Shown: positions 1,212 through 52,379 of the stretch, piece by piece
Numbering within the stretch: position 1 is the stretch's first letter
Layout of the letters: each line of letters opens with the position of its first letter
Source of the DNA: a virus
Lineage: Duplodnaviria; Caudoviricetes
Virus record (IMG/VR): IMGVR_UViG_3300025674_000059
Location: 1 to 52,782 of that record
Strand: one strand, 5' to 3'
Length of the DNA stretch: 52,782 bases
Program-made: the position numbers and the translations under genes
Notes under the pieces: model-generated
The model's database searches: none
What the model was told of the DNA's origin: nothing
Seen by the model: only the letters and a program-made list of their open reading frames with translations

Positions 1212-3091
1212 TGCCTTTGCAAAAATTTATATTTAACCCTGGAATCAACAAAGAAGGCACCGACTATAGTGCTGAGGGTGGCTGGTTCGACGCTAACTTA
1301 GTTCGGTTTCGTCAAGGGCTTCCAGAAAAGATTGGCGGCTGGGTAAAGTATATTCAGTCTTCTTTTACAGGGACAGGTAGAAAGTTACACGGCTGGGTTA
1401 CGTTAAACGGTACTAAAGCCTTGGGGATTGGTACAACATTTAAATTGTATTGGCAGGAAGGTGCTGATTATAACGATATCACCCCTATTCGAGAAACTAC
1501 TGCTGCAGGAGACGTTACGTTTTCTGCTTCTGACGGTTCTTCTACGATTACGATTACCGATACAAGTAATGGAGTCAATCTAAACGATTTTGTTACGTTT
1601 TCTGGCGCTGTTTCGTTAGGTGGCAATATTACAGCGGATGTTTTGAATCAAGAGTATCAAGTTGCTTCGGTAGTAACTACTGATACTTATACGATAGAAG
1701 CTAAAGATACTTCTGGGGTAACGGTAACTGCGAATGCCTCAGATACGGGTAACGGTGGGTCGTCTACGGTAGGAGCGTATCAAATTAACGTCGGTCTAGA
1801 CGTTTTTGTATCTGGTTCTGGTTACGGTGTTGGAACATGGGGTAGTGGAGGTTGGGGTTCATCTAGCTCGTTAACTGCTAATAATCAGTTACGACTATGG
1901 TCACTAGATAATTTTGGCGAAGATTTAATCGCTAATGTGCGGGCAGGCGGTGTTTACTACTGGGATTTTTCTACCTCTACTCAGCGAGCTAAAGCCCTTA
2001 AAGATATTTCAGGCGCAAATTTTGCTCCTACTGTCGGGTTACAGGTTTTAGTTTCTGATATTGATAGACATGTTATCGTTTTAGGTGCAGACCCAATAGA
2101 AAACGGCAGTAGGTCTGAGGTAATAGATCCGCTACTTATTGCATTTTCAGATCAAGAAAATCCGTTAGATTGGGAACCACGCGCTACAAATACTGCGGGT
2201 TCGTTACGATGTTCAGCAGGCTCAGAGATTATTGGTGGGTTACGAGCTAGACAGGAAACGCTCGTATGGACTGACGTAGCAATGTATAGCTTACAGTTTA
2301 TTGGCCCTCCAAATACGTTTGGTCTTACTCTTATTAACGAAGGCGTAAGTTTGATGAGTCCGAATGCTGCGGTAAACACTCCTAACGGTGTTTTTTGGAT
2401 GGATAAGAAAGGCTTTTATACTTACAACGGAGCTGTACAACCCGTACCGTGTAGTGTCCATTCTTATGTCTTTGACAATTTAAACGTCGGTCAAGCCTTC
2501 CAAGTATTTGGATTCGTAAATAAGCAGTTTGACGAGGTTGGTTGGTTTTATTGTTCTGGAACTAGCACTGAGCCAGATAGCTATGTTAGTTACAACTACA
2601 TCGAACAATCATGGTCTATTGGACAGCTTTCTCGCACCGCATGGTTAGACGAAGGAATCGAGTCTTTTCCTCGGGCTACTGGTAAATATAGCTCTACTTC
2701 TTACGTTTATTCCCACGAATCAGGGAACGATGATGACGGGGTTCCTATGGATAACGTCTTTATTGAAAGCGCTGATTTTGATATTGGGGAAGGAGACCAG
2801 TTCCAATTTATTCGTAGATGTATACCAGACGTTAAATTTACAGGTGATTCCGGTAGTACGCAGGCGATTAACTTCGTGTTAAAGGCCCGTAATTATCCTG
2901 GAGATTCCCTTACGACGGATATAACGTCTTCCTTTACCGGAAGTACGACTAAAATAGATACCCGCGCTAGGGGCCGACAAGCGGCGGTACGCTTCGAATC
3001 TAACGATAACGGAGAAATGGGAGATCGTTTAGGAGTAGGGTTTATAATTGGAGCAACTCGTTTAGAAATACAGCCTAACGGTAGACGGTAA
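1211..3091 (+). CDS. Tail tubular/head-closure (stabilisation) protein
   Basis: 626 aa beta-rich; N-terminal PGINKEGT and C-terminal RARGRQ...QPNGRR typical of marine podovirus tail nozzle proteins; precedes putative ejection proteins. Confidence 0.65.
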   Translation: MPLQKFIFNPGINKEGTDYSAEGGWFDANLVRFRQGLPEKIGGWVKYIQSSFTGTGRKLHGWVTLNGTKALGIGTTFKLYWQEGADYNDITPIRETTAAGDVTFSASDGSSTITITDTSNGVNLNDFVTFSGAVSLGGNITADVLNQEYQVASVVTTDTYTIEAKDTSGVTVTANASDTGNGGSSTVGAYQINVGLDVFVSGSGYGVGTWGSGGWGSSSSLTANNQLRLWSLDNFGEDLIANVRAGGVYYWDFSTSTQRAKALKDISGANFAPTVGLQVLVSDIDRHVIVLGADPIENGSRSEVIDPLLIAFSDQENPLDWEPRATNTAGSLRCSAGSEIIGGLRARQETLVWTDVAMYSLQFIGPPNTFGLTLINEGVSLMSPNAAVNTPNGVFWMDKKGFYTYNGAVQPVPCSVHSYVFDNLNVGQAFQVFGFVNKQFDEVGWFYCSGTSTEPDSYVSYNYIEQSWSIGQLSRTAWLDEGIESFPRATGKYSSTSYVYSHESGNDDDGVPMDNVFIESADFDIGEGDQFQFIRRCIPDVKFTGDSGSTQAINFVLKARNYPGDSLTTDITSSFTGSTTKIDTRARGRQAAVRFESNDNGEMGDRLGVGFIIGATRLEIQPNGRR

Positions 3092-3420
3092 TGGCTAGAA
3101 TTCTTAACGGAAGATTGCCTGTTGTTAACCAAGATCCGGTAGATAGTGGAGCTTTTAACAGGGCTATGCGGGTGTTGGAGCTTGGTTTAGGGTCGTTCGA
3201 TCCTACAGCAACCCCGCAATACACCAGCTCTAATAGAGACGAGCTAAGTTTTGCGGTAGGCGATATTATTTGGAATACTACAGAAGAGGTTCTTCAAGTA
3301 TATTTGGGCAATTCTTGGCAGAATATTTCAACGCCAAGCACCTCTGGACTGAGCGCAACAGGGAGCGTAGGTACGGTTCAGGTGGTTACTAACGGCAACA
3401 TTACGGTAGCGGTGGCTTAA
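3091..3420 (+). CDS. Small tail-associated structural protein
   Basis: Translationally coupled; GDIIWNTTEEVLQVY motif of tail-fibre-like proteins. Confidence 0.5.
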   Translation: MARILNGRLPVVNQDPVDSGAFNRAMRVLELGLGSFDPTATPQYTSSNRDELSFAVGDIIWNTTEEVLQVYLGNSWQNISTPSTSGLSATGSVGTVQVVTNGNITVAVA

Positions 3421-4346
3421 TGGCTAGTATTTACAACGATGACCAACGTCAATCTTTAATAAATTCGATGACTAATCCTGAATCCAATGCTACTAAATTT
3501 GTAGAGCAAGGCGAAGATATTGGCATGCCTCGCGACGTTACGATGGATATCCTCAATCGTTACGCAACTTACGGGGCGAATACGGGAATCGGGAATCTTG
3601 GTGGCGAACGACTAGTTAATGCTCTTAATGACGAATATCGTAAACGTGTTGATGAGCCACTTCAAGAAATGCCTAAAGAAGCGTTTATTGGTGGGTTAGC
3701 TGAGTTTCTAGCGAATCTTGGTTCGTCTGCTATACAGGGGATAGGAAATGTTGGCAGTAGTATCGCGGATGTTTTCGCAGGTGCTCCGACGGAACTTAGT
3801 GGAGAGGCTGCTAAGGAAAGTTTAGCTGCTCTTGACGCAGCCGCAGCTCCAGGAGTGGAAGCGGCTTCTGTAACTGACGCAGGAGCTACAGGTGGAGCAC
3901 TTAACAGTCCTGTTTCGCTAGAAAACTCGCTACTGCCGGAAGCTACTCGTTTAGAAAAGTTTCAAAAGTATTTAGACGAAAATCCTTTAGTTGCTAGACA
4001 GCTTATGTCTTCGGGGCAAGACATTGGTAAAATTCTTGGGCAAGCTCTCGGGGGCGGCGGTAAACGTGAAAGTAAAATCCCTATCCGCGCTCCGCGTCCT
4101 AGGTTTCAGCCAGGAGCTATCCGCAGCCAACGTATCGGTATGGAAGATGGTGGTAGTGTGCTAGGCCGTAAATTGTTTTTAGATGGCGGTGAAATTGACG
4201 GGCCTGGAGGCCCAAAAGAAGATTTAGTTCCAATATGGGCGAGCGATAAAGAATACGTTGTTTCACATCAAGGCGTAAAAAATATGGGTGGCGGTGATTT
4301 CGATAAAGGAATCGCGGCTCTTGATAAAGTTAACTTTGGTAAATAA
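3420..4346 (+). CDS. Putative internal virion protein
   Basis: Gly/Ala-rich; MEDGG and DGGEIDGPGGPKED...EYVV motifs; position after tail genes. Confidence 0.5.
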   Translation: MASIYNDDQRQSLINSMTNPESNATKFVEQGEDIGMPRDVTMDILNRYATYGANTGIGNLGGERLVNALNDEYRKRVDEPLQEMPKEAFIGGLAEFLANLGSSAIQGIGNVGSSIADVFAGAPTELSGEAAKESLAALDAAAAPGVEAASVTDAGATGGALNSPVSLENSLLPEATRLEKFQKYLDENPLVARQLMSSGQDIGKILGQALGGGGKRESKIPIRAPRPRFQPGAIRSQRIGMEDGGSVLGRKLFLDGGEIDGPGGPKEDLVPIWASDKEYVVSHQGVKNMGGGDFDKGIAALDKVNFGK

Positions 4347-4348
4347 TC

Positions 4349-6229: not shown

Positions 6230-6230
6230 C

Positions 6231-8525
6231 GTGGCGAATAATTTCGGTTTTAATATCGGCGGCGGTGGCGGGGGTATTGCTAATTTAGTTCAGGCACCTA
6301 AAGTTACGCCTGTACGTTCAGTTCAATTTGCACCTACGCCTCAGCGTCGTGTACAACGCGACGAAAAAGATCCTAAAAAACAGATCCTTGGTGCGTTGTT
6401 AGGTACAGCTGCTCCGTTTGCGGCAGACGCTGCATTAAAAGGTTTAGGTTCAATAACGGGGTTAGAAGATAAGTTTTTTAAACCAGACCCCATGGCAGTT
6501 TCAGCGCAAGTTCCTGACATAGACGCGCCTGAAGATATAGCTGCTGGCGAAGGATTTAGCCCAGAAGAACTTAGGCAAAGAATAAGAAACCAACGATTAG
6601 CGGAAATTTCTAATTCTCTCCCGCAAATCGGCACACAAAGAAAAACAGGGTTAGGGAACTTAGCCAGCTCATTACTACAGTTTGCTCCTGCTTTTGCATT
6701 AGCAGGAGACGAGGACGACGGTTCTGCAGGCGCGTTTATTAGCGCAGCGAACGCAGCTAGAAAATTAGACGCAGCTACAGAACGGTCAGAAATAGATGCA
6801 GCGATAAGAAGAAGCCAAAGCAGAGCTTCTGAATTTGCCAAAGTAGATCCTAAACTTACCGCAGTTACCGTTAATGGTTGGAAAGATGTAGACGGCAAGC
6901 TCGAAGGATATCAAACTAGAGCACTTCGTGATGAAAACGGGGTGACTTGGGTTGAAAGTCGTGGAGATGCTCGATTTGATAAACAGCAAGGTACTAACGA
7001 AGTTGTTCCTAAAGGTCAGTATTACCGCAACACTGACCTAACTTTGTTAGACGGAGAAATAGCAGAAGTTAAAACCGAAACTTTCCAAGATTCAGGCGGG
7101 AAAACTGACGGACAACTTTACGAAGTAAGTTTAGTTAACGCTATGGATCCTAAAACTGGACAAAGGGTAATAGAAAGACGAGTATTACAAGACGACGGAA
7201 CATATAAAACTGTCGCCCAAATGAAACAAGAAGGATATAACTTAGTTTCAAGTGTTGATTTAACAACCGAACGAGCCGTTCCTGGAAGGTTAAAAACGAA
7301 TGCGCAGAATAAATTAGATAATTATGTGTTACGCAGAAACGGCACTCGTAATCTCGTTGCTTTAGCTACTCAGATTTTTGACCGTTTAGGTATGGCAGGT
7401 GCGTCTGTAGACGAAAATGGTGATTTAGTAAGAGACGAAAACGGAAACATCGTAGGTTTAGACGAAAGTATTACGACAGGTTCTACTGAGTATGCTGCAA
7501 ATCTTACCGATATTCTTGATAGAAACGTCAGGATGTTTGGTTCAAAAATGGCCCAGCTATACGGTATGGAAGGGGCTGATGAAACGTCTGTTTTTGATGA
7601 ATTTATAAATAGAAATGTAGACCCAGATGCTGGTGCAGGAGCTGTACAACTTTCTGGTACTTTAGGTGCGTATCAGGCCGCTTTAGAAAGCACCGATCCT
7701 GCGGATATAAGAAATACACGATCATTGTTAGTAGATGACCTACTGACCATTAGAAACAGCACTACTTCAAAAGATGCGGATAGCAAGACAAGTTGGCTTA
7801 ACTTAGATAGAAAAGCATTAGATGAATATCTTCAAGACACTGGATTTTACGGTGCCGCACAAATCCGTTTAGCGTTTTTAATGGCTACTGCTAGAGGTGA
7901 ATCGCTATCAAGGATTTCTGATAGAGACGTGGCTTTAAATCTACAAACGATGGGTTTTGAAGACGGTGCCCCTTCTGTAGTTGTAGATAAACTGGGTGGA
8001 GCTATTTTCGACGCGATTAGAAATGTTGATAGAGAATTTGCGGGTTCTTCTACGCTGCGAAAAGTAGAGCTGCTAGAAAAGATGTCTCCTGCAGAACAAA
8101 CTAGTACTTTAGAAAATATTCGAGATGATTTTGCAGCTAGATATAATTTAGATACTGGCCCAGATTCAGACATTGACAGACTTTATAATTCTGAAGATCC
8201 TACAGAAATAGCTAGATTACGCAGGAAAATAAGAGGAGATGCGCAAAGAAATGTAGGTGGCGCTGGAACGAATACTTTTATTTACGATCCAAAACTCCAA
8301 ATGTTTTTACCTGCAACAGTTGCCAGAGAAATACTTAAAGGCGAAGACCCAGAGTTCGGTAAGTTCGGTCGATATTTAGGTATGTTAAAATATAATTTAC
8401 GAACTGGCCAAACTCCTGGAAAACGAAGCACCGCTCCAGCTCGCTCTCGTAATCGCACTACAACAACAACTCCAGGAGGAACTAAAACTACAGGCGCGTT
8501 TAGTCAACGAGTACAGAGCCAATAA
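6231..8525 (+). CDS. Putative internal virion protein
   Basis: 764 aa, GTG start, within the ejection-protein cluster. Confidence 0.5.
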   Translation: MANNFGFNIGGGGGGIANLVQAPKVTPVRSVQFAPTPQRRVQRDEKDPKKQILGALLGTAAPFAADAALKGLGSITGLEDKFFKPDPMAVSAQVPDIDAPEDIAAGEGFSPEELRQRIRNQRLAEISNSLPQIGTQRKTGLGNLASSLLQFAPAFALAGDEDDGSAGAFISAANAARKLDAATERSEIDAAIRRSQSRASEFAKVDPKLTAVTVNGWKDVDGKLEGYQTRALRDENGVTWVESRGDARFDKQQGTNEVVPKGQYYRNTDLTLLDGEIAEVKTETFQDSGGKTDGQLYEVSLVNAMDPKTGQRVIERRVLQDDGTYKTVAQMKQEGYNLVSSVDLTTERAVPGRLKTNAQNKLDNYVLRRNGTRNLVALATQIFDRLGMAGASVDENGDLVRDENGNIVGLDESITTGSTEYAANLTDILDRNVRMFGSKMAQLYGMEGADETSVFDEFINRNVDPDAGAGAVQLSGTLGAYQAALESTDPADIRNTRSLLVDDLLTIRNSTTSKDADSKTSWLNLDRKALDEYLQDTGFYGAAQIRLAFLMATARGESLSRISDRDVALNLQTMGFEDGAPSVVVDKLGGAIFDAIRNVDREFAGSSTLRKVELLEKMSPAEQTSTLENIRDDFAARYNLDTGPDSDIDRLYNSEDPTEIARLRRKIRGDAQRNVGGAGTNTFIYDPKLQMFLPATVAREILKGEDPEFGKFGRYLGMLKYNLRTGQTPGKRSTAPARSRNRTTTTTPGGTKTTGAFSQRVQSQ

Positions 8526-8527: not shown

Positions 8528-11500
8528 ATGTCTAGTGAATTTTTACTTACAAAAGACCCGTTTTACGAGTCCGACGTTTTTGGAACGATCGCTACTGAAG
8601 CGGGTATAGATGCGTATTTAGATTCCGAAGGCGAAATAAACTCACGTTATCGCGATAGTGAAGGTAATATCCGAGCTTATACTCCTAAACAGATATTAGA
8701 TTCAGGTGGCCCAAGGGCAAATGTAGTTCAAGAAGTTCAAACAGGGCAGGGAAAACAAAAGGTCGCGTTATCTAATCCTGATTTTTTCCGTTTCGCAGCG
8801 ACATTAGAACAAGTTTTAAACGACCCTGAGAGATTACAACAAGTTCAAGACGAACTAGGCGTGAACGTTGATAAGCTGCGCTCTGACTTTGAAGCAGTCG
8901 AGCCTATCTACAGCGAAATGCATGCGCGTATTGGTAGGAACAGAGATCAAGCCCTAGTCTCTACTGACTATGAAAAACGAGAACAAGATGAGGAGCCGCT
9001 AGTTCCTCCAGCTATGCAAGTTAGCAGTGGCCTTCTTGGTTACGGCCTTATTCGGGGGGCCGAAGCTATTCGAGGGCTATCGTTTGAAACTAATGAGGCT
9101 CAACGAGAAGCGTCAGTTTTACGAGGAGTAAACCCCCGCTACGTTGAAAACTCTTATGAAGAGTTCGCCCCTATTGATTCTGATTATTTTTATCGTTCAG
9201 GCGTTTCCCCTGTTTTTCCGACTCCGACAGAATATAAAAACATTATTCGGAAGTTCGACCCCGAAGCTGAGGTCGAATTAATTAATCCTCGTAACCCTCA
9301 AGATGGGTTAATCGTTAAAAGTAAATTTAACCCCTTTGACGAAGAGCGTGGGGATTACGCATGGCTTCCTGTAGCTAACGTACAGCCTGTTGAAGAAGCA
9401 TTGGAAGGCGACATCTCTCCTGCGTTACGGGAGCTTGCTAAATTTGGAGCGCAAGAGGGCGCGGGAATCGCGGCTGGTGGTTTTCTTACAAACGTAGCTG
9501 GTAAAGTAGCTAAAAACAGAATCCAGCAAAGACTGCAAAGAAAAGCTACCGATATAGATGAAGGCGAAGCTCTTTACAGATTACCTGAATCTAGGTTCGG
9601 TAAGGCAGTGGTTGAAGTTGGAGCTACAGCACTCGGAGTAGCTGGCACTGAAACTCTTATACGATTTGGACAACTTGCTTTAGGTGCAACCGAAGCAGGT
9701 GGTAACGTACAGCCCGACCTAACTTTTGAAAGAGCAGCAGAAGATTCGGGAGCCGTGTTTAAAGCTGCGCTTATGTATGGTGCAGCAGGAGACGCATTCC
9801 TTAGAAGCCTTGGGGCTATGTGGTCTAAATTGACTGGTCGACCAGTATCTAGTGAAATAATTGATACAATGATGGTCGAAGCAAGAGTATTAGGCGATAA
9901 AATTCGTCGAGTCAATAACGGTGATGCAGACGCGCTTCCTGAGGAAACGACTCCCGAAATGCGTCGAAGAATTACCGAAGTTGTTCAAGAAGGAACTGAT
10001 TCCGCTGAACAATTTGACGAACTAACTCCTGCAGAAATTATAAGAATTACCCAAGAAGGTTCTACAGAAGCAGCGAAGAGAATTAGGCAGCAAGCTCAAA
10101 CTCTTGGACAGATGTCTGATAACGAACAAATTATAGCGTTTGAAGAATTAATGTCGGAAATTGCTTTAGAAATGCCGATAGCTGGAAGATTAGAAGATTT
10201 TCATAGGTCAAACTCTTCGTTGTTAGAACAGTTTTATACTGATATTTTAAGAAAATCGGGTCTTAATCCTAGAGAGGCTGAAGATTTAGGAATTACTAAA
10301 GAAACATTAAACGATGTTTTTACTGGTATTCGTAGTCAGAAATTAGTTAGCGAGCTTTCAGAAGAAGAACGAGCATTAGCCGAAAATATGGCTAATCAGC
10401 AATTAGGGCAAGCATTTGCGTTAGATACTTCTCGAGCTGGAAGACAACAAGCTGCAGAAAACATTCAAGAACAAGTAAGTACAGCACAAAGTCAAGCATT
10501 CCCTGATCGAAAATCAAGGCTTATTGTTCAGCGCAGTGAAGAACTAGACGGCACCCGTTCTCAAATAGACGGTATATTATCTAGAGAGCAATATAACGAT
10601 AGCCAAGCGACTGTCAAACTTCCTAAATACATAAAAGTCGCTCTTGAAGATTTTTTAAACGCTAATAAACAAGAAGGTATTGTATTCGGCTCTGAAGACG
10701 CAGCTGAAGCAGCAGAATTTATTAGAGCTATTTTGCCGAATCGAGAAACTGAAGGGATAAGTATCCAACTACTATTGGGGCAGGGTCGAGAGGGGGGCCA
10801 GTTTTTACCTCAACGAGACTTTACTCAACGAGAGTTAATTTTAACTAGGGAAAACTTATCCGCAGCAGTATCTGGACACCCTAATAAAGTTATTCGTGAA
10901 AAAGGCCAAGCACTGCTTGACAGTATTGATAACGCAATCGACGATAACTTTCGTCAAATGTATAGGATACAGACCGGCAGAAAAGCTCCAGAGAATATGG
11001 AAAAAGTTTACGACGAAGTTGGTCGTGAATACCAAATTCTTGCTACGAAACTTGCCGATCAACAAAGAGATTTATCTGCTCGGTTTTTAGTGGACATCGC
11101 TAAAAAAGACGAATCTGAAATAGGTTCATTTATTAGAACTACCAATCCTGGACAAGTTAGAGCATTAGTTGAATTTATTAGTAGACAAGAGGGCGGATTA
11201 GAAAAATTACAGTCGATTAAATCAACTGTTTTAGAGTCTGTTCAACGAGAAATTGATGTAGATAATGTCGATGTCGGCACAGCCCGTAACCGCTTTAACT
11301 CAATCATGTCTAAAAACGAAGAACAGCTTCGTGCATTGTTTCCAGAAGATTTTGTAAAATTTGAAAACTATCGTGACTTTTTAACTAACGCTAGAGAGTC
11401 TATCACTAAGTCACAAGCTAATGTTCGAGCTATTAATAAAGAACTTGAGAAACTAGCTGATGATACAGGTAGATTTCCTACATTAACGCAAACGTTAGAC

Positions 11501-12325: not shown

Positions 12326-13872
12326 TGTCCGTTTTCTATAAATCAAAAACACTCTCACAACTTCCAGCGACTGAAGAAGTCGAACCTCCTAAAATGTTCG
12401 GTGGCGGTAATCTTGGTAATTTTAGTATCAATATCGATCCTGAACGTATTGCCGCATATATGGCAAATAACCCCGTAGTTGCCGATACGGTTAGCCAAGC
12501 TCCTCCGCAACGTGTGACTAACACTGCTTCTAATAATGTCTATATTCCTTCTGAAGAAGTTCTTGCATCTGTTGAGGCTGCAGAAAACCCAACATCGTAT
12601 AACTATGAGCTTTATGGCCCTTCGGCTTCTGAAGCAGCGGGTTTTAATCCATATGGCAACAGTGAAGGTATGGGGCCGACCTATAACGAAGCTGATATTG
12701 CCCGTGCAATCGAAGCTAGAAGGGCTGCGGAAGAGCGAGCTGCGGAAGCAGAAGCTGCTAGAGCTGCGGAAGCAGAAGCTGCGGCGGCTAGAGCTGCGGC
12801 AGCAGAAGCGGAATTTGCTAGACGACTAGCTAACGCCGAACTAAGTGCTCAAGAAATTCAAGATCTTATTACAGGCGGAATGTTAAGCGAAGATCAGGTT
12901 CTTGCAATTATTCAAAACTATCAACTTAGCGAAGATCAAATAGCTCAGTTATATACTCAAGGGTTGCTTACTGAAGAACAGATTTTAGCACTAGTCGAAG
13001 GCGAAGTTGCTGCTCAGTTCGATGAAGAGCCTAGCGCCCAAGAAACCGCTGCCGCCGCAGGTTTAACACAAGAACAAGTTCAAGACTTAATTAACGAAGG
13101 CAGACTTACTGAAGATCAAGTCTCTGATTTAATTTCTGGTCAATTAAGTGATTACAACCCGAATGTTGATCTGTCTGGCTATCTTACTGCTGACGATTTA
13201 TCTGGGTATGCAACTACTGAACAAGTTCAAGGGTTAGAAAATTTATTTCAAAATTACTTAACACCTGAACAATTACAAGGGTATCTTCCACAAGAAGGTC
13301 AGTACGTTACTCCTGAGCAATTAGCAGAAGCGACGACTAATGATTATGATTCTGTTATTCAAGGTTTAACAGATCAACTAGGTGAACTTGAAACTAAATA
13401 TCAAGATGTGCAATCTCAATACGAAGCTGACGCAGTTAACCAGCAAATACAGGATACGAAAGAAGAACTCAATAACTATTTTTCAAGTATGGCCCCTAGT
13501 GGCCCACGAACAGGGTCTACATCTCAGTTTAGTTCAGGCACTTCGTTTCTTCCAGGAGGTAGTCCGATGGCCAGTCTTATCGGCAGCCAGCGAGAAGGGC
13601 AAGGTCAAGACGCATTTAGTTCTTACTTAAAAACATTTACTCCCAGTTACAGTGCATACAACGAACCGTTTACTCCTGAAGAATATAACGAACGAAATCA
13701 ACCGTTTACTGGCGGGATGTATAATAATCCGTTTACCGGCGGTATGTCGTACAACCCTGATAAAAAGAACATGGGTGGTCAAGTATCTAACGGTATAATG
13801 GATCTCACTAATTTCGATACGAACGTACAACCGTTTCAAAACGCCTTTCGGCCTAACGTACCAAGGAACTAA
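12325..13872 (+). CDS. Acidic repeat-containing protein, probably virion-associated
   Basis: GAGGAG RBS; AAEAEAAR repeats and L(S/T)EDQV repeats; KNMGG motif. Confidence 0.6.
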   Translation: MSVFYKSKTLSQLPATEEVEPPKMFGGGNLGNFSINIDPERIAAYMANNPVVADTVSQAPPQRVTNTASNNVYIPSEEVLASVEAAENPTSYNYELYGPSASEAAGFNPYGNSEGMGPTYNEADIARAIEARRAAEERAAEAEAARAAEAEAAAARAAAAEAEFARRLANAELSAQEIQDLITGGMLSEDQVLAIIQNYQLSEDQIAQLYTQGLLTEEQILALVEGEVAAQFDEEPSAQETAAAAGLTQEQVQDLINEGRLTEDQVSDLISGQLSDYNPNVDLSGYLTADDLSGYATTEQVQGLENLFQNYLTPEQLQGYLPQEGQYVTPEQLAEATTNDYDSVIQGLTDQLGELETKYQDVQSQYEADAVNQQIQDTKEELNNYFSSMAPSGPRTGSTSQFSSGTSFLPGGSPMASLIGSQREGQGQDAFSSYLKTFTPSYSAYNEPFTPEEYNERNQPFTGGMYNNPFTGGMSYNPDKKNMGGQVSNGIMDLTNFDTNVQPFQNAFRPNVPRN

Positions 13873-38235: not shown

Positions 38236-38675
38236 GTACGGCGATATTGGATATCCAAAAATCTAAACTTGCAGCGATACAAGACGTAGTTTCTGCTATT
38301 TCAAGAACCCGTCCTAACGCGCCGTCTCCGTATATTAATACGCATCACTTTGCTCCTGGAATTTATATGCGAGCGTATTACGGAGTCAAAGGTTCGGTAG
38401 TCGTAAGCCAAGTTCATTTACACGAGCATATGACGATATTAGCAGCGGGACATTGTCGCGTTATTTCTACGATGCAAGATGAAGAACGGATAGACGTTTA
38501 TAAAGATTTCGCGATTATGAATACGCCAGCGCATACGAAACGGGCGTTATACTTTTTAGAAAATACGACGATCATTACGGTTCACCCTAATCCTGACGAT
38601 ATCCGAGATATTCCAGAATTAGAGCGGATGTTTGTTGTTGATAATTTTAAGGATATTGAACAATGGCATTCGTAG
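38232..38675 (+). CDS. Cupin-fold phage protein
   Basis: HHFAPGIYMR, VHLHEH, TKRA and ITVHPN motifs. Confidence 0.6.
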   Translation: MSTAILDIQKSKLAAIQDVVSAISRTRPNAPSPYINTHHFAPGIYMRAYYGVKGSVVVSQVHLHEHMTILAAGHCRVISTMQDEERIDVYKDFAIMNTPAHTKRALYFLENTTIITVHPNPDDIRDIPELERMFVVDNFKDIEQWHS

Positions 38676-39604
38676 TTACTGCAGTAGTTATCGCAACAGG
38701 CACAGCCGCATACGGCGCAAGTCAATCTCGTAAAGCCCAAAAACGTGCTGAAGAAAACGCTCAAACTCGTGCGTTAATTGAAGGGTCTGCCCCGAATATC
38801 GCGATGGTTAAAGAAGTTATTCCTGAAGAAGTACAGGGTAGCGAAGTTACTGGATTAGAGGCAGCGTTAAAAGCGATGGATTACGGAGGCGGTCAGCCCC
38901 CGATTCCTGGAGCGGCGGAACAAGGTGTTATGCCTACTGATATGCCTGAAGAAGAATTAATGGGGATATTAGAACAGCAGGGCGGGTTAGAAGGTTTGTT
39001 GCCGCAAGGGATGGCTGACGGTGGGCCGGTAGGTACGCCTAGCGATGTATATTATTTTGGCGTTCCGCAAATTATGGGAATGATGCAAGACCCCGACCCA
39101 CAGATCCAGCAGGTAGGTATGCAACTTGCGGATCAAATGGAAATGAACCCTGATGCGGGGATGGTGCCAGCTACGCAACAACAAATACAAACGATGGCTA
39201 ATGGGGGCGCTGTTACCGCAAAAAAGTTTTCTAACGGAGGGATCACTGACGATGAGCTACAAAGGAGAGCTGGGTTAGATCCTCTACAAGAACTTGAAAG
39301 ATTAAAGGGATCCACAAAAAGAGACTTGTTATCAAGTCTTGGGTTGCCTGAAGATTTTGGAGAAAGGAATAGAGAAGACGTTCTGTTTAGTGAATTAATG
39401 GATCGTTTAGATTTGCCTGTAGATATTCAAAAAGAAGGCGACGAGTATTCGATGTCTAAGATATTCGGAGACGAAGATTCCTCATTACGTTTAGGTGCTT
39501 CGACGAACCGTGGTGATCCGCAAATAAGGTTAGATTTCCAAAAACGATTTGCTGAAGGTGGCCCGATAACTGAGGAACGGCTAAACCAGCTTAGACGCAG
39601 TTGA
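38663..39604 (+). CDS. Putative ejection/internal virion protein
   Basis: Hydrophobic N-terminus then basic helix; four xxGG motifs. Confidence 0.5.
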   Translation: MAFVVTAVVIATGTAAYGASQSRKAQKRAEENAQTRALIEGSAPNIAMVKEVIPEEVQGSEVTGLEAALKAMDYGGGQPPIPGAAEQGVMPTDMPEEELMGILEQQGGLEGLLPQGMADGGPVGTPSDVYYFGVPQIMGMMQDPDPQIQQVGMQLADQMEMNPDAGMVPATQQQIQTMANGGAVTAKKFSNGGITDDELQRRAGLDPLQELERLKGSTKRDLLSSLGLPEDFGERNREDVLFSELMDRLDLPVDIQKEGDEYSMSKIFGDEDSSLRLGASTNRGDPQIRLDFQKRFAEGGPITEERLNQLRRS

Positions 39605-41118
39605 CCACCCCACTTGAACAGCTAAAGGAAGTAGACCTATCGCATTTGTCGAAAGATGAAGCGAAAGAGTTTACCCTTCTCCTAGAGGAATTAGAAAAGC
39701 GTGAAAAACGCGAAAGTTCTATGGCGTCGTTTTACGATTTTGTTAAAACGATTTGGCCAGAGTTTATTGCGGGTGCGCACCACAAAAAGATGTCCGAGGC
39801 ATTCGATAAAATCGCCAGCGGAGAATCAAAGCGCCTCATAATCAATATGCCGCCGCGACATACGAAGTCTGAATTTGCTTCGTATTTGTTTCCAGCTTAC
39901 TTATTAGGTAAACGTCCTAAATTAAAAATTATTGAAGCTACGCACACAGCTGACCTTGCGGTTAATTTTGGACGCAGGGTTCGTGACTTAATTGAAAGTG
40001 AAGAGTATGCGGAGATATTTCCGGCTACCGAACTAAAAGCTGACTCGCGAAGCGCGGGTAAATGGAATACATCGCAGGGCGGTCAGTATTATGCGGCGGG
40101 TATTGGCGGTGCACTCGCGGGTCGTGGTGCTGATTTGTTTATTATCGACGATCCCCACTCCGAACAAGACGCTTTTTCGGATAAAGCGTTAGAAGAAGCC
40201 TACGAATGGTATCAAACTGGCCCCCGTCAGCGCCTTCAGCCAGGAGGTGCGATCGTTATCGTAATGACTCGTTGGTCTAAAAAGGACATAACGGGTAAAT
40301 TAATCAAGCGGATGACGCAAGAAAAGGGTGGCGACGAATGGGAGGTTATTGAGTTTCCCGCGATATTGCCATCAGGTAAACCGCTATGGCCTGAATTTTG
40401 GTCATTAGACGAATTAGAAGCGACTAAAGCGTCGATACCTCCGTCTAAATGGGCAGCGCAGTATATGCAGCGGCCTACGGGCGAGGGTATTTCGATTATT
40501 CCTAAAGAATGGATAATGGAATGGCCTAGAGATAAGCCTCCGACGTGCGATTATTTGATCCAAAGTTACGATACGGCGTTTTTAAAGTCCGAAAGATCCG
40601 ACTATACGGCGATAACGACGTGGGGAGTGTTCTATCCCGAGGGTAAAATCGGCGATGAACTGTATAGTGGGCAGGATGCGCATATAATTTTGTTAGATTG
40701 CGTAAAAGAGCGGTTAGATTTCCCCGAACTCAAGCGCGAAGCGATGCGATTATACGAGCATTGGGAGCCTGATTCGGTAATTATCGAAACAAAAGCCTCT
40801 GGTATCCCGCTAACGCAGGAATTACGGCGGCAGGGTATCCCAATAAATACCTTTTCACCGAGCAAAGGTCAGGATAAGATCGCAAGATTAAACGCGGTTA
40901 GTGGAATTTTCCAAGAAGGCCGTGTTTGGGTGCCTGATACGAACTGGGCGCAAGAATTAGTAGACGAAGTTGCTGATTTTCCGAACGGGGACAATGATGA
41001 TTGTGTAGATGCAACTACATTAGCCCTAAGTCGCTTTAGACAGGGCGGATTTTTGCGATTAGACGGCGATTATGACGACGAAGAAGAGTATTATCCGAAA
41101 ATACGGGCATATTACTAA
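39601..41118 (+). CDS. terL: Terminase large subunit
   Basis: MPPRHTKSE, GRGADLFIIDDP, MTRW, SYDTA and NDDCVDA motifs. Confidence 0.95.
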   Translation: MTTPLEQLKEVDLSHLSKDEAKEFTLLLEELEKREKRESSMASFYDFVKTIWPEFIAGAHHKKMSEAFDKIASGESKRLIINMPPRHTKSEFASYLFPAYLLGKRPKLKIIEATHTADLAVNFGRRVRDLIESEEYAEIFPATELKADSRSAGKWNTSQGGQYYAAGIGGALAGRGADLFIIDDPHSEQDAFSDKALEEAYEWYQTGPRQRLQPGGAIVIVMTRWSKKDITGKLIKRMTQEKGGDEWEVIEFPAILPSGKPLWPEFWSLDELEATKASIPPSKWAAQYMQRPTGEGISIIPKEWIMEWPRDKPPTCDYLIQSYDTAFLKSERSDYTAITTWGVFYPEGKIGDELYSGQDAHIILLDCVKERLDFPELKREAMRLYEHWEPDSVIIETKASGIPLTQELRRQGIPINTFSPSKGQDKIARLNAVSGIFQEGRVWVPDTNWAQELVDEVADFPNGDNDDCVDATTLALSRFRQGGFLRLDGDYDDEEEYYPKIRAYY

Positions 41119-41155: not shown

Positions 41156-43528
41156 ATGGCTGAAGTGCAATTCCCAGAAGAGTTTGAAGGCGAAGAACAG
41201 GTAGAAATTCTGTTTGACGAGGAAGATAACCTCGTTGACCCTTCTATGTTAGAAATGGAAGTAGATATTCCGTTTGAGGAAAACCTCGCGGAGTATTTAG
41301 ACCCTGCTACGTTGTCTGAAATTTCTAGTGAACTTCTTAGTGCCTACGAAAACGATGTTGACTCCCGTCAAGATTGGTACGAAACATTTAAAAACGGTTT
41401 AGAACTGCTAGGTATTGAAAACGATCCTCGTAGTGAACCGTTTGAAGGCGCGAGCGGCGTATACCATCCCGTATTGGCTGAAGCGGCTACGCATTTTCAA
41501 GCGCAAGCATATAAAGAACTTTTACCAGCTAACGGCCCTGTAGATACGAAAATTATGGGCGCTTCTAATGATCCTAAAGCGATGCAGGCTAATCGCGTTA
41601 AGGATTTTATGAATTATCAGCTGATGTACAAAATGGACGAATACGATCCTGAAATGGATCAGATGTTGTTCTTTTTGCCGTTAGCAGGTTCTGCGTTTAA
41701 GAAATGCTATTACGACCCTACGATGGGCCGAGTCGTTTCTAGGTTTATTAAAGCTGAAGATTTAATTGTTCCGTATACAGCTACGGATCTACACACGTCA
41801 CCTCGTATTACACACCGCTTGAGTATGACGGAGAATGATCTTCGTAAGTTACAGCTAAGTGGTTTTTATGTAGACGAGGATATGAACCCTCCGTCGTATG
41901 CTGACAACAGTGATTCAGTACAGCAAAAGATTGATGAGTTAGACGGGGTCACTCGTACAGGGAACCAGCACGACTATACGCTGCTTGAGTTTCACGTTGA
42001 GTTAGATATCGAAGGTTTTGAGCATACGGATAACGACGGAGAGCCTACTGGGTTAGCTATCCCGTATATCGTAACTATTTGTAAAGATAACAACACCGTG
42101 TTATCCGTCCGTAGGAATTACGAAGAAACGGATCCGATGCGTAAGAAAGTTGAATACTTCACGCATTACAAGTTTCTTCCAGGATTGGGTTTTTACGGTT
42201 TCGGGTTGATCCACATGATTGGTGGCGTAACTAAATCAGCTACGGCTATTTTACGTCAGCTAATTGACGCAGGTACGTTAGCTAACTTACCAGCTGGTTT
42301 TAAAGCTCGTGGGTTAAATATCCAACGTTCTGATGATCCAGTGCAACCAGGAGAGTGGCGTGACGTAGATACTCCTGGAGGAACTATCCGCGACTCCTTT
42401 ATGCCTCTCCCCTATAAAGAACCTAGCGCAACTTTAGCGCAGCTATTAGGGTTACTCGTAGAGTCTGGGCAGCGGTTTGCATCTGTAATGGATAACCAAA
42501 CTGGGGACGCTAACTCTAATGCTCCAGTAGGCACTACCGTTGCGTTGTTAGAAAAAGGTCAAAAAGTTATTTCTGCAATCCACAAGCGGTTGCATTACGC
42601 GCAGCGTAACGAATTCAAAATACTAAAGCGATTATTCGGTGAGTATCTACCTCCTGAGTATCCGTACCAAGTACAGGGCGCACAGCAAACTGTTTTCGCT
42701 GAGGACTTTAACAACAGCGTAGACGTTATTCCTGTTTGCGACCCTAATATCTTTAGTACGACCCAGCGTATTATTTTAGCGCAGACTCAACTTCAGATGG
42801 CTCAAAGTGCTCCTCAGATTCATAATCTGAAAGAAGCATACCGCAAGATGTATATTGCTTTGAACATTAAAGATATCGACGATATCTTAATGCCTGATAT
42901 GGCCCCTGCGCCTAAAGACCCCGTCCAAGAAAATATGGACGCATTGATGAGTGCTCCTTTACAAGCGTTCATTCAACAAAACCATGACGCCCACGTTCAA
43001 GCACATATGGCGTTTATGCAAAATCCTCAAACACAGCAGAATCCACAAGCGATGGGTGCGCTTCAAGCGCACATTCAACAGCACCAAGCTCTGAAGTATC
43101 GTATCCAAGTGGAAGAAATGTTGGCTCAACAAGGTATCCAGCTACCGCAGCCTGGGCCGGACGGCCAGTTGCCTCAGTTGCCTCCCGAAGCAGAAAACCA
43201 GATAGCTATGGCGGCTGCTCAAGCAACTCAGCAGATCACTGGTCAAGAACAAGCTCTTGCTCAAGCGATGGCCGCACAGCAGCAAGATCCTCAGCGCCAG
43301 ATGTTCGAACAACAGATGGAATTAGAGTTCGAAAAACTTAAACAACGTGATAGGGAATCCGAGCGTAAAGCGCAGTTGGAAAGAGAGCGTATTGAATCTC
43401 AAGAACAACAAACGGATATCCGTGTAGCTTCTGATCTACAGCAAGCAGAGATGCGCGATGATAGAGAAGTAGATTCTAATTTGACTGAGATTGCAAAGAT
43501 TGTTCGGGAGTCACAGGAAAAGGATTAA
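41156..43528 (+). CDS. Portal protein
   Basis: Follows terL; PFEGASGV.HP.LAEA, FLPGLGFYGFG and RQLIDAGTL.NLP motifs; Gln-rich tail. Confidence 0.9.
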   Translation: MAEVQFPEEFEGEEQVEILFDEEDNLVDPSMLEMEVDIPFEENLAEYLDPATLSEISSELLSAYENDVDSRQDWYETFKNGLELLGIENDPRSEPFEGASGVYHPVLAEAATHFQAQAYKELLPANGPVDTKIMGASNDPKAMQANRVKDFMNYQLMYKMDEYDPEMDQMLFFLPLAGSAFKKCYYDPTMGRVVSRFIKAEDLIVPYTATDLHTSPRITHRLSMTENDLRKLQLSGFYVDEDMNPPSYADNSDSVQQKIDELDGVTRTGNQHDYTLLEFHVELDIEGFEHTDNDGEPTGLAIPYIVTICKDNNTVLSVRRNYEETDPMRKKVEYFTHYKFLPGLGFYGFGLIHMIGGVTKSATAILRQLIDAGTLANLPAGFKARGLNIQRSDDPVQPGEWRDVDTPGGTIRDSFMPLPYKEPSATLAQLLGLLVESGQRFASVMDNQTGDANSNAPVGTTVALLEKGQKVISAIHKRLHYAQRNEFKILKRLFGEYLPPEYPYQVQGAQQTVFAEDFNNSVDVIPVCDPNIFSTTQRIILAQTQLQMAQSAPQIHNLKEAYRKMYIALNIKDIDDILMPDMAPAPKDPVQENMDALMSAPLQAFIQQNHDAHVQAHMAFMQNPQTQQNPQAMGALQAHIQQHQALKYRIQVEEMLAQQGIQLPQPGPDGQLPQLPPEAENQIAMAAAQATQQITGQEQALAQAMAAQQQDPQRQMFEQQMELEFEKLKQRDRESERKAQLERERIESQEQQTDIRVASDLQQAEMRDDREVDSNLTEIAKIVRESQEKD

Positions 43529-44207: not shown

Positions 44208-44327
44208 ATGCCAGGACGCAAAACGAACAAAAAGATGCCTAAGAAAATGGGCATGGGCGGCAAGACCGCTAAGAAAATGCCGATGAAAATGAAGCGCGGC
44301 GGTAAAACTGGAGGCAAAAAGAAGTGA
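44208..44327 (+). CDS. 39-aa Lys/Met/Gly-rich basic peptide
   Basis: AAGGAG RBS; MPGRKTNKKMPKKMGMGGKTAKKMPMKMKRGGKTGGKKK. Confidence 0.7.
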   Translation: MPGRKTNKKMPKKMGMGGKTAKKMPMKMKRGGKTGGKKK

Positions 44328-44536
44328 GAAATTTTAGATCTACGGAACTTCCGTATCCGTCTCCTAAAACTCAGAAGGCAGGAGTTATGCCGTCTATTCC
44401 AGAACCTTCTAACGAAGGTTTTGCGAAGCCTACCGAGTTAAAGCAAAAGACTGTTGACCTTCCTGGAAAGAAAGTAAGGACAAAAGGTACTGGTGCAGCA
44501 ACTAAAGGATTGGATTTTACTAGCTACATCAACTAA
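44324..44536 (+). CDS. Small basic protein
   Basis: GTGAATKG motif common in head modules of such phages. Confidence 0.7.
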   Translation: MRNFRSTELPYPSPKTQKAGVMPSIPEPSNEGFAKPTELKQKTVDLPGKKVRTKGTGAATKGLDFTSYIN

Positions 44537-47113: not shown

Positions 47114-48025
47114 ATGGCTATTTCAAGAGCGCAACTCGTAAAAGAGCTTGTTCCTGGCCTTCACGCTCTCTTCGGTTTAGAGTATGAACGCTATGCACCT
47201 GAGCATGAAGAAATCTTCGATACGGAGACTTCTGAACGAGCTTTCGAAGAGGAAGTAATGCTTAGTGGTTTTGGTGAGGCACCTGTGAAATTTGAAGGTT
47301 CTGCAGTATCTTACGATACCGCACAAGAATCTTTCACTGCTCGCTACACTCACGAAACTGTCGCTTTGGCGTTTTCTTTGACTGAAGAAGCAATTGAAGA
47401 TAATCTGTACGACACCCTGTCTTCTCGTTATACACGAGCACTAGCTCGTTCTATGATGCAGACGAAGCAAATTAAAGCTGCGAACGTATTGAACAATGCG
47501 TTTAACAGTTCATTTGTTGGTGGAGACGGTAAAGAGCTTTGTGCAACTGATCACCCCACCGTGGGCAATCAAGACCAACGCAACGAACTGTCAACTGCTG
47601 CAGACTTAAACGAAACTTCGTTAGAGCAATCGTTGATTGATATCGCAGCTTTCGAAGATGAGCGTGGTCTAAAGATCAATGCTCAGGCTCGTAAGTTGAT
47701 TATCCCATCTGCTCTGCAATTCGTTGCAGATCGTCTACTGGAAACTCCAGGACGAGTAGGTACTGCGGATAACGATATTAACGCGATCCGTAATATGGGT
47801 ATGGTTCCTGAAGGATATACGGTTAATCATTATCTAACAGATACTGATGCCTTCTTCCTGAAGACCGACGTACCTAATGGTCTGAAGCACTTTGTGCGAT
47901 CTCCTGTCTCTACGAATATGGAAGGTGACTTTGAAACCGGAAATGTTCGTTATAAGGCCAGAGAACGCTACAGCTTTGGCTTTAGTGACTGGCGTGGTAT
48001 TTTCGGCTCTCCTGGAGCTGCGTAA
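47114..48025 (+). CDS. Major capsid protein (Mu gpT-like)
   Basis: MAISRAQL.KEL.PGL.ALFG and YKARERYSFG.SDWRG.FGSPG motifs. Confidence 0.92.
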   Translation: MAISRAQLVKELVPGLHALFGLEYERYAPEHEEIFDTETSERAFEEEVMLSGFGEAPVKFEGSAVSYDTAQESFTARYTHETVALAFSLTEEAIEDNLYDTLSSRYTRALARSMMQTKQIKAANVLNNAFNSSFVGGDGKELCATDHPTVGNQDQRNELSTAADLNETSLEQSLIDIAAFEDERGLKINAQARKLIIPSALQFVADRLLETPGRVGTADNDINAIRNMGMVPEGYTVNHYLTDTDAFFLKTDVPNGLKHFVRSPVSTNMEGDFETGNVRYKARERYSFGFSDWRGIFGSPGAA

Positions 48026-48168: not shown

Positions 48169-48678
48169 ATGGCACAGACCACTTTTGCTGGCCCGATCAA
48201 ATCTTTGGCGGGTTTTATAAATGCAGGTGTTAACACTACTGTTAGCCTAACTGCAGACACTTCGCTAACTGTTGCAGCTCACGCAGGTAAAATCCTGCTA
48301 TGTAACGATGCGGATGGAAAGTTTACGCTTCCTTCGATTGTTACTACTGCCCCAACTGATCCTACTTCCCCTGATCAAGCTAATAATGTAGGCGCGTCTT
48401 TCTTTTTCTATATTGAAACTGCAGCCACAGATTTGGACATTTTGACGGACGGCACTGATAAGTTTAAAGGCGCTGCCGTGGTCGCTGTTGATGACAGCAC
48501 TAAAAAGGCATTTATTCCAGGAGCATCAAACGATGTGATGACTCTGAATGGTTCAACTAAAGGTGGTTTGGTCGGCAGTGTTGTTCAAGTAACGGCGATT
48601 GATGCTGCGACCTATCTTGTACACAATACTTTATTGCTTGGCTCCGGAACGATTGTTACGCCTTTTGCTGACGCATAA
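48169..48678 (+). CDS. Structural protein (head/neck)
   Basis: MAQTTFAGPIKS...TPFADA; GAGG RBS. Confidence 0.65.
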   Translation: MAQTTFAGPIKSLAGFINAGVNTTVSLTADTSLTVAAHAGKILLCNDADGKFTLPSIVTTAPTDPTSPDQANNVGASFFFYIETAATDLDILTDGTDKFKGAAVVAVDDSTKKAFIPGASNDVMTLNGSTKGGLVGSVVQVTAIDAATYLVHNTLLLGSGTIVTPFADA

Positions 48679-48732
48679 GAGTTATAACGATTAAATTAGG
48701 GGAAGGGTTCTTCCCCTTATGGGAGATAAGAT

Positions 48733-50808: not shown

Positions 50809-50813
50809 ATAAA

Positions 50814-51535: not shown

Positions 51536-51545
51536 CGAGTAATAT

Positions 51546-52379
51546 GTGGCAGATCTTAATGGGTGGGGCAGAGGCACTTGGGGCGAAGGCCCGTGGGGTC
51601 AAGCAACTCCTGTTGAGGTTACAGGTGTTGCAGCTGCTGGGGCGGTCGGTTCCGTTACAGTTTCTGCGGATGCGAATGTTTCTGTTACAGGTGTTGCAGC
51701 AACGGGGTCGATTGGCTCCGTTACGATTGTTGAAGGAACGGGCGTTACCGTTTCTGTTACGGGAGTGGCAGGAACGGGAGCTATCGGAACGGTTACTGTA
51801 TCGTCAGATGCGAATGTTAGTGTTACTGGCATTTCTGGCACTGGAGCGGTTGGTACAGTTACGGTCAGCGCAGATGCGAATGTTTCAGTCACTGGAGTCG
51901 CAGGTACTTCAGCTGTTGGAACGGCTACAGTCAGCGCAGATGCGAATGTTTCAGTCACTGGGATTGCAGGTACAGGGTCAGTTGGAACCGTTACTGCGAC
52001 AGGAGATGCGGTATTTGCTGTTACAGGTGTGGCAGGTACTTCAGCAGTCGGCACAGTCACTATTGGGTTGGGCCAAACGATTGTTCCAACGGGTGTCGAA
52101 GGCACTGGAGCGGTTGGTAATGTAGTTGTTGTTGGTGGCGCTGTTGTTAGTGTTACGGGAGTATCTGCGACAGCGGAGATAGGGTATTTTAATGTTTGGG
52201 GGTTAGTAAATGACGCTCAAACGCCAAATTGGAATAATATAACGGATAGTCAGACTCCTGGGTGGACTGATGTTTCAGACAGTCAAACCCCTAATTGGAA
52301 TAATATAACGGATAGTCAGACTCCTGGGTGGGCTGATGTTTCAGACAGTCAAACCCCTAATTGGGATGAGGTAGCTTAA
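51546..52379 (+). CDS. Repetitive tail-fibre-associated protein
   Basis: GWGRGTWGEGPWG start; VTGV..TG.VG.VT repeats; QTP(N/G)W C-terminal repeats. Confidence 0.7.
   Translation: MADLNGWGRGTWGEGPWGQATPVEVTGVAAAGAVGSVTVSADANVSVTGVAATGSIGSVTIVEGTGVTVSVTGVAGTGAIGTVTVSSDANVSVTGISGTGAVGTVTVSADANVSVTGVAGTSAVGTATVSADANVSVTGIAGTGSVGTVTATGDAVFAVTGVAGTSAVGTVTIGLGQTIVPTGVEGTGAVGNVVVVGGAVVSVTGVSATAEIGYFNVWGLVNDAQTPNWNNITDSQTPGWTDVSDSQTPNWNNITDSQTPGWADVSDSQTPNWDEVA
52218..52364 (+). repeat. 66-bp in-frame tandem repeat (about 2.2 copies)
   Basis: Units start at 52218, 52284 and 52350. Confidence 0.9.

Follow-up and report, generated by a model that had tools for sequence, protein, structure and literature searches.

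Why should a phage genome keep the pentanucleotide CCNGG only where its proteins demand it, and why should nearly every copy that it keeps stand next to a thymine? This question is raised by the virus record IMGVR_UViG_3300025674_000059 (Caudoviricetes) from the IMG/VR collection, which was analyzed as a complete record, a single contig of 52,782 bp with 45.3% G + C; this whole stretch is referred to here as the window. Between its helicase and polymerase genes the window carries a predicted thymidine-modification module, recognizable by a gene for a 5-hydroxymethyldeoxyuridine (5-hmdU) DNA kinase (5-HMUDK). The explanation which we consider the best, and probably correct, is that this phage and the clade to which it belongs experience restriction of the CCNGG type and that a hypermodified T next to a site shields the sites which cannot be removed.

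The window contains 35 CCNGG sites, 16 of them CCAGG and 19 CCTGG, and neither CCCGG nor CCGGG. All 35 lie in frame 0 within an open reading frame (ORF) on the + strand (34 in large ORFs), and each of them therefore is a Pro-Gly codon pair. In all of this the exact count reproduces, position by position, what the initial annotation had found by scanning the sequence manually. As null model served 500 synonymous-codon shuffles within each gene, by which the proteins and the codon usage per gene are kept. Split by frame (0/1/2), the observed CCWGG numbers are 35/0/0 and the shuffle means 25.7/6.6/24.7, with minima of 1 in frame 1 and 13 in frame 2. This corresponds to 0 vs 31.3 expected out-of-frame CCWGG, 0 vs 37.4 CCSGG and 0 vs 49.3 GGWCC, the AvaII-type word whose absence had escaped the initial annotation. 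None of the 500 shuffles came near zero for any of these three. Pro-Gly itself stands at 0.60 of its expectation in the window, and when the 400 dipeptides are ranked by depletion, it heads the list together with Gly-Pro.

The sites that are left are far from random with respect to their neighbors. Twenty of them read TCCWGGA, ten VCCWGGA and four TCCWGGB, while a single one has no flanking T on either strand, which amounts to 30 sites with A at position +1, 24 with T at position -1 and 34 with at least one flanking T. The respective shuffle means (and maxima) are 6.1 (14) for A at +1, 9.0 (16) for T at -1, 2.2 (8) for both flanks and 12.9 (22) for at least one flank. That GGA does not dominate the glycine codons elsewhere, as had been remarked from the sequence alone, is correct: it accounts for 24% of 1238 Gly codons and for 47 of 205 after ACW, GCW or TCW, compared to 30 of 35 after CCW (Fisher p = 1.4e-12). 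The enrichment of T at -1 had been missed. T precedes a CCW proline codon in 24 of 35 cases if glycine is next, but only in 146 of 449 cases if it is not (p = 3.3e-5). As both sides of the site are biased, the preferred context is the strand-symmetric TCCWGGA.

Both flanks are present in TCCTGGA at 2897..2901, 7281..7285, 8415..8419, 11147..11151, 16015..16019, 28021..28025, 38355..38359, 38906..38910, 42374..42378, 44462..44466 and 48011..48015, and in TCCAGGA at 3849..3853, 8472..8476, 13552..13556, 19283..19287, 21820..21824, 28432..28436, 42179..42183, 47747..47751 and 48517..48521. Only A at +1, that is a flanking T on the bottom strand, is found in CCCTGGA (1238..1242), GCCAGGA (4110..4114, 28072..28076, 40240..40244, 44211..44215), GCCTGGA (4203..4207, 22770..22774, 37696..37700), CCCAGGA (24755..24759) and ACCAGGA (42347..42351). 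The four sites with T at -1 only are the same that had been singled out as TCCWGG before: TCCAGGT at 38044..38048, TCCTGGC in the major capsid gene (47153..47157) and TCCTGGG at 52257..52261 and 52323..52327. The sole exception, GCCTGGG at 43151..43155, encodes part of a Gln-Pro-Gly-Pro stretch in the portal gene (phrog_1216) and had likewise been named. The last two TCCWGG-only sites belong to two identical ACT CCTGG GTG units, 66 bp apart, in ORF 51546-52379, whose C-terminal part matches the nonapeptide-repeat family PF12815 (E = 1.3e-7). The site at 44211..44215 forms codons 2 and 3 (M-P-G) of ORF 44208-44327 if the latter is read from its ATG at 44208; this ORF is located between the gene downstream of the portal gene and the next small genes. 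Its product would then be a very lysine-rich peptide of 39 residues beginning with MPGRK, which could be a DNA-binding or internal virion peptide.

The same rule holds far beyond this one genome, in a marine clade defined by the shared modification module. Scanning IMG/VR with the kinase yielded 80 loci (58-99% identity, 35-48% G + C), which were reduced by shared 21-mers to 42 non-redundant ones; 41 of these fall into four groups and one, L026, stands apart. Expectations for these loci rest on greedy ORF calls and not on curated annotation. In the four groups, 86/89, 93/96, 234/240 and 23/25 CCWGG sites have a flanking T, which gives 436 of 450 for the 41 loci where base composition predicts about half; for L026 it is 17 of 20. 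Most CCWGG sites of the clade are again in-frame Pro-Gly pairs and many loci hold no others, and the out-of-frame copies which some lineages contain follow the same flank rule. With clade and window pooled, comparison with synonymous shuffles reveals a dose-response: sites with 0, 1 and 2 flanking T amount to 16/311 (0.05), 217/305 (0.71) and 243/88 (2.76) observed/expected, respectively. The initial annotation had proposed a tolerated context with a T at the center of the site and a T next to it. The adjoining T stands, whereas a T at the center clearly gives no protection by itself, since VCCWGGB is purged across the clade. The signal is confined to position -1, where T reaches 73%; positions -2 to -5 are not comparably prominent. 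As CCCWGGA and TCCWGGG are both present, the pattern cannot be the union of longer specific words. Pro-Gly is also depleted in the pooled clade (391 observed vs 641 expected, 0.61), and GGWCC shows a weaker gradient of 0.31/0.78/1.12 for 0/1/2 flanking T.

None of this is seen in four relatives without the module, 023Pt_psg01, DSL-LC04 and the Pelagibacter phages HTVC027P and HTVC023P, which share the replication block in synteny and have large terminases 52-60% identical to that of the window, but lack the kinase gene as well as the genes for the methyltransferase-like protein and the thymidylate-synthase homologue described below. They contain 65-190 CCWGG per 50 kb, which is above the mononucleotide expectation, and exhibit neither CCNGG avoidance nor a bias toward CCWGGA or TCCWGG. 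Sites without flanking T make up 38/81, 121/190, 32/67 and 20/65 of their CCWGG, the flank classes 0/1/2 are flat (195/142, 147/135 and 33/31 observed/expected, or 1.38/1.09/1.08), and Pro-Gly stands at 0.99-1.13 of expectation. Orthologous Pro-Gly positions, 37 found only in the controls and 22 only in the window, agree in direction, although weakly and from four non-independent comparisons. A fifth control, MinM2, is also devoid of all three module genes; it matched the window via the terminase only, and none of seven window proteins searched (polymerase and helicase included) matched its locus. Relatives lacking the operon had been named beforehand, by the initial annotation, as the comparison that could refute a link between site bias and modification operon, and the outcome favors this link.

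Taken by itself, the window with its 35 of 35 sites in frame would also be compatible with a preference for CCW followed by GGA as a codon pair. TCCWGGA might alternatively be a positively selected protein-binding motif. Both appear extremely improbable. A codon-pair preference does not account for the bias of the base before the proline codon, with T at 24 of 35 sites and a strand-symmetric pattern as the result, nor for the out-of-frame CCWGG of the relatives that obey the flank rule, and in the four syntenic controls the choice of Gly codons following Pro is the same as in the rest of their genes. A selected TCCWGGA would be expected out of frame and between genes as well, and in the window it is not seen there. 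A flank effect that is strand-symmetric, extends to out-of-frame sites and is absent without the operon indicates selection on the DNA.

CCNGG is not the only type of site that is missing. Among the 61 hexamer palindromes with an expectation of at least 4 in the window, 20 are found at a ratio of 0.2 or less (same null model), whereas this applies to only 24 of 2007 non-palindromic hexamer classes, most of which contain CCNGG or GGWCC. Examples (observed/expected) are AAGCTT (0/19.0), TACGTA (0/10.9), GAGCTC (0/9.3), ACCGGT (0/9.1) and AGTACT (1/12.3); CTTAAG, GCTAGC and several hexamer palindromes made up of G and C only are missing altogether, too. The genome-wide setting is one of multi-site restriction avoidance, with the depletion concentrated on palindromic, enzyme-like words. 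This argues for the selection by a CCNGG-type restriction system that the initial annotation had postulated, with a host enzyme as the putative agent. A general avoidance of G + C-only words was considered and rejected, as GGCC, GCGC and CGCG occur at 0.90-0.96 of expectation in the window. Among the palindromes, too, a T at the edge makes a difference. With a GGCC core, TGGCCA is spared (8/9.3) while AGGCCT (0/6.7), CGGCCG (0/7.3) and GGGCCC (0/3.7) are absent; with a GCGC core, TGCGCA is spared (12/10.7) compared to AGCGCT (1/10.9), CGCGCG (0/8.0) and GGCGCC (0/7.2). TCGCGA (15/13.2) and TGTACA (14/13.9) are retained as well, and the exception among T-first palindromes, TACGTA, has neither TG nor TC. 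Sorted by first base, palindrome ratios in the window are 0.85 for T, 0.41 for A, 0.68 for C and 0.53 for G. In the clade (pooled L008-L080) they are 0.87 for T vs 0.60-0.68 for the other bases, and in the controls they are flat (0.88-1.04). As T-first palindromes are largely spared, the flank rule at CCWGG is one case of a wider effect of a T at the 5′ edge in this genome.

A comparable pattern is present in phages of other lineages. M6, ViI, PhiW-14 and SP10 are described as carrying hypermodified thymidine. In the whole genome of SP10, the classes with 0|1|2 flanking T amount to 0/50 | 24/50 | 15/12 (observed/expected) for GGCC, so that 39 of 40 sites are T-flanked, and to 0/44 | 7/32 | 19/7 for GGWCC, where T flanks 26 of 26 sites. 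SPO1 is a member of SP10's subfamily. The host named in the record of SPO1 is Bacillus subtilis, a host species that the two phages presumably share (the record of SP10 names no host). SPO1, which we take to carry 5-hmdU without hypermodification, has only 4 GGCC sites left, and its purge is independent of the flank (1/59 | 1/54 | 2/11). For ViI (150 of 157 kb analyzed), the corresponding values are 1/43 | 14/54 | 21/14 for GGSCC (37 of 38 T-flanked), 15/58 | 52/63 | 11/13 for GGWCC and 63/144 | 180/159 | 60/46 for GGCC. The first 50 kb of PhiW-14 exhibit a weak GGWCC gradient. SPP1 and Felix O1, which we assume to be unmodified, purged CCWGG under any flank (SPP1, 0/19 | 0/17 | 0/4, and likewise GCWGC; Felix O1, 1/10 | 1/12 | 0/3). 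In total, SPP1 has 0 vs 40 expected CCWGG and 0 vs 73 GCWGC, with CCSGG and GCSGC at about twice their expectation. A rescue of sites by a flanking T is hence found in the hypermodified phages SP10 and ViI and is absent from SPO1, SPP1 and Felix O1.

How might a neighboring T protect a restriction site? In the mechanism that we propose, host endonucleases acting on CCWGG and CCSGG (of the EcoRII, PspGI, SsoII, ScrFI, BstNI or NciI kinds) or on CCNGG would select against every site that can be lost, while GGWCC and some twenty palindromic hexamers would be under pressure as well; a single CCNGG enzyme and separate enzymes for CCWGG and CCSGG fit the sequence equally. No CCNGG site that synonymous codons can dispense with is left. 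As proline followed by glycine always spells CCNGG, the dipeptide was thinned to 0.6 of its expectation, the T-free CCSGG was abandoned and the remaining CCWGG were set in TCCWGGA. Here a T, always in TC context, directly adjoins the 5′ side of the site on at least one strand and preferably on the two. Within virion DNA, T in TC context is predicted to be hypermodified by a pathway leading from a dUMP hydroxymethylase via 5-hmdU in DNA and 5-HMUDK to further steps. Enzymes of the EcoRII, PspGI and Ecl18kI kind cut directly 5′ of the first C and flip out the central base pair. With such a cut, the base at -1 would be the one that counts, and a bulky side chain adjoining the first C and the scissile bond could block the half-site. 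If one strand of a site is blocked, the most that could follow is a nick. This would account for one T being sufficient and two being preferred (0.71 vs 2.76), in line with a double-strand cut that requires both half-sites.

The module on which this mechanism depends is read from its predicted genes. The 5-HMUDK gene (22137..23084, + strand), a marker of post-replicative thymidine hypermodification, matches PF18723 (HMUDK_hel) with E = 1.8e-44 and 152.6 bits against a cut-off of 25, and its product is 35-46% identical to those of PhiJL001, PaMx11 and M6-group phages. The thymidylate-synthase homologue (23280..24332, +; phrog_5131, E = 5.7e-107) is a predicted dUMP hydroxymethylase producing 5-hmdUMP, with 42-44% identity to annotated deoxyuridylate hydroxymethyltransferases of Bordetella CN1-type phages, Pseudomonas M6-type phages and PhiJL001. 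Directly upstream of the kinase gene, in every locus that extends far enough, lies a gene for a protein with a class I S-adenosylmethionine (SAM) methyltransferase fold (21298..22161, +; Pfam Methyltransf_23/11/25, also 12, E = 5.5e-10). All three genes are found throughout the clade. A T4 endonuclease V-like gene (Pyr_excise, PF03013, E = 1.1e-9; 20798..21298, +) adjoins the module, but with its presence in 24 of 42 non-redundant loci it is probably not a core part of it.

Another way of protecting sites, which the initial annotation had already raised as an overlapping protective methylation, would be that an enzyme of host or phage methylates C or A within TCCWGG(A) or an overlapping word; the methyltransferase-like gene would be the candidate on the side of the phage. 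Its distribution matches the flank rule just as well as that of the kinase gene (41 of 42 non-redundant loci, 60-99% identity; 0 of 5 controls), and since one and the same base pair appears as T at -1 or as A at +1 depending on the strand, a mark on the adenine would be no less compatible with the data. We nevertheless regard this as unlikely. The protein matches families of the small-molecule type and no DNA methyltransferase family in a Pfam scan, look-ups in NCBIfam, PDB sequences and a protein atlas return just a viral class I SAM methyltransferase, and it falls in virus-only clusters of such enzymes. DPPY or NPPY and PCQ are catalytic motifs of DNA methyltransferases; by eye, neither these nor the wider (D/N/S)PP(Y/F) were found in the translation. 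Moreover, one flank suffices whatever the base on the opposite side, which fits an effect of a single neighboring base better than a methylated word of 6-7 bp, and SP10 and ViI follow the same rule at GGCC, GGWCC and GGSCC, with hypermodified T as the only common feature.

Methylation could also be what is avoided. Dcm-like marks at CCWGG would invite Type IV nucleases in the next host, and a modified T beside the site would keep the methyltransferase away. Such a scenario predicts the same sequence pattern as restriction with shielding by a hypermodified T, and PMC6449724 mentions that phage DNA is methylated by the Dcm of the host. It leaves unexplained, though, why CCSGG, GGWCC and some twenty palindromic hexamers were purged in parallel, which has the look of classical Type II avoidance, and we assign it a very low probability.

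Several observations weigh against restriction with shielding by a hypermodified T. With T at -1 being A at +1 on the other strand, the protected base cannot be separated by sequence. In the window itself, GGWCC and CCSGG are at 0 under any flank, and a flank effect looked for at CCGG was not found: TCCGGA accounts for only 5 of 53 sites, and TCCGG/CCGGA (34 observed vs 76 expected) are depleted like CCGG overall, so that a flanking T brings no rescue there. M6 (50 kb) and PhiJL001 possess the kinase and show no flanking-T rescue. M6 even purged the T-first palindromes TCCGGA (0/16) and TCGCGA (0/20), but not CCGG or CGCG themselves. In ViI, CCGG appears to follow the rule (8/170 | 164/142 | 38/34; 217 of 225 T-flanked), yet it was set aside as independent support, since CCSGG is almost gone from this genome (4 sites vs about 123 expected) and avoidance of CCSGG and RCCGGY predicts the same flank matrix. 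Felix O1 exhibits a mild depletion of the class without flanking T at CCGG (5/15), GGCC (5/10) and GCGC (6/15), which implies that avoidance of hexamer palindromes can mimic part of a flank effect. No match to aGPT-Pplase, the usual partner of 5-HMUDK, was obtained in Pfam scans of the 83 ORF translations of the window, and no relative turned up when contigs of bacterial genomes were scanned with the kinase. Finally, a single rule spans a clade of 35-46% GC and 58-99% kinase identity with presumably many hosts. That the pressure on CCWGG should have stayed constant over so many hosts is surprising and lends some plausibility to an agent that belongs to the phages themselves.

Such an agent could be a phage nuclease or a DNA-processing step acting at CCWGG or CCNGG, for example in the destruction of host DNA. 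A uniform rule over a diverse clade is easier to understand with one constant internal agent than with many hosts of like specificity, and many ORFs of the window are without an assigned function. However, Pfam scans of the 83 ORF translations detected no restriction-endonuclease, Vsr, MutH or EcoRII/SsoII/MvaI-like family, and the sole nuclease-like match is a weak one to Hjc/VRR-NUC (27107-27496, E = 1e-3, under the curated cut-off). Sub-lineages furthermore differ in what they have purged, many loci having no CCGG, GGCC, GCGC or GATC, and this variety is what changing hosts would produce. Some sub-lineages (L021, L023, L028, L045) purge CCWGG and keep CCSGG. An internal agent therefore appears quite unlikely, and host restriction with shielding of the remaining sites is still the preferred explanation. 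The four loci just named solved the problem of Pro-Gly in the reverse manner: they have 0-1 CCWGG and write Pro-Gly via CCS, with 6-25 CCSGG per locus. In one sub-lineage (L050, L054, L056, L057, L059-L062, L064, L072 and L074-L076), GATC is reduced to 0-1 sites vs 34-70 expected; the window holds 238 GATC sites.

It is conceivable, though clearly less certain than the explanation for the clade, that rescue by a flanking T marks phages with thymidine hypermodification in general, as a signature not described so far. Restriction sites out of reach of the modification from within would then be tolerated only directly beside a modifiable T (in TC or TG). If this is true, genome sequence alone would distinguish hypermodification of T from mere 5-hmdU, for which SP10 and SPO1 offer an example of such a sequence-only marker, and it would also reveal the modified dinucleotide context and the specificities of the hosts. 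The pattern bears on the questions which thymines become hypermodified and over what distance a single modified base gives protection. Across hundreds of sites in the clade, CCWGG is tolerated as soon as one T adjoins it directly on the 5′ side, and positions farther away are irrelevant. The depletion of Pro-Gly, which reshapes the proteome, would be a clear case of anti-restriction selection reaching the protein sequence. The modification itself may be new and its pathway undescribed, judging from the combination of a kinase and a SAM-methyltransferase-fold enzyme without a recognizable aGPT-Pplase.

As for the phage that carries this module, nearly all genes of the window are on the + strand and form a siphovirus-like set with holin, endolysin, tail genes, small and large terminase, portal and major capsid protein. 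The replication block comprises proteins similar to gp32, gp33 and gp34 of Pam3, a primase, a UvrD-type helicase and a family A polymerase. The structural genes resemble those of marine and freshwater phages, and a megablast search with 10 kb of the window against a collection of isolated phages gave no match. Phage Carin-5 was considered as a relative and turned out to be unrelated; excerpts of its description give a genome of 154.7 kb and 37% GC with a sugar-type modification.

Avoidance of restriction sites, and of palindromes in particular, is a classical phenomenon of phage genomes. The window and its clade resemble it in that short palindromes are lost beyond what codon-preserving null models allow, that several of them (CCNGG, GGWCC, AAGCTT) are lost together, and that related phages have not lost identical sets of sites. 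Ordinary avoidance, as in SPP1 and Felix O1, purges CCWGG outright and ignores the flank; here, unlike in these phages, the purge extends to the protein level and the residual sites follow a neighbor rule. TCCNGGA is the specificity of PfoI-type enzymes, and TCCWGGA is a subset of this palindrome of 7 bp, yet it is enriched (20 vs 2.2 expected). Enrichment and the sufficiency of one flank imply that TCCWGGA is not the target of the restricting enzyme; a PfoI-type site would be of relevance only if a methyltransferase were the protecting agent. While restriction avoidance and DNA hypermodification are both known, the neighbor rule at residual sites and its parallels across lineages appear to be new. 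A footprint of this kind was not found described in the literature searched, including PMC5889632, PMC8989533 and PMC5977210, from which supplementary tables lay outside the search.

The closest precedents come from work on modified DNA itself. In 2018, the sequence motifs of hypermodified T were, in the wording of one passage, still said to be ones that "are not yet known" (PMC5889632), and later work inferred TG and TC from digests. Sections of PMC6449724 report that the resistant sites in DNA of M6, ViI and PhiW-14 are rich in TG and TC, that a T flanking a GC-only site (tGCCGGC) may add resistance, and that 5-HMUDK was proposed to prefer T followed by S, with the reservation that the flank effect "cannot explain all resistant sites". 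The suggestion of the initial annotation that the tolerated context might reveal the context which modified T protects agrees with this proposal as well as with the 39 of 40 T-flanked GGCC of SP10 against the 4 sites left in SPO1. PMC6449724 deals with in-vitro enzymology of three phages, whereas the present pattern is an evolutionary footprint in the sequence of another phage group and concerns CCWGG. Phage SH-Ab 15599 provides a second comparison. According to portions of PMC13458397, its alpha-dapT occurs mainly at TG, then at TC and far less at TT or TA, hypermodification protects the phage against host enzymes, and its DNA is fully resistant to BstNI at CCWGG. The window lacks a recognizable aGPT-Pplase, unlike that system, but would share with it a sequence-specific context of the modified T. 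In SH-Ab 15599 the central TG of CCTGG was taken as protective, whereas in the clade described here it is the T outside of the site, in TC context, that counts.

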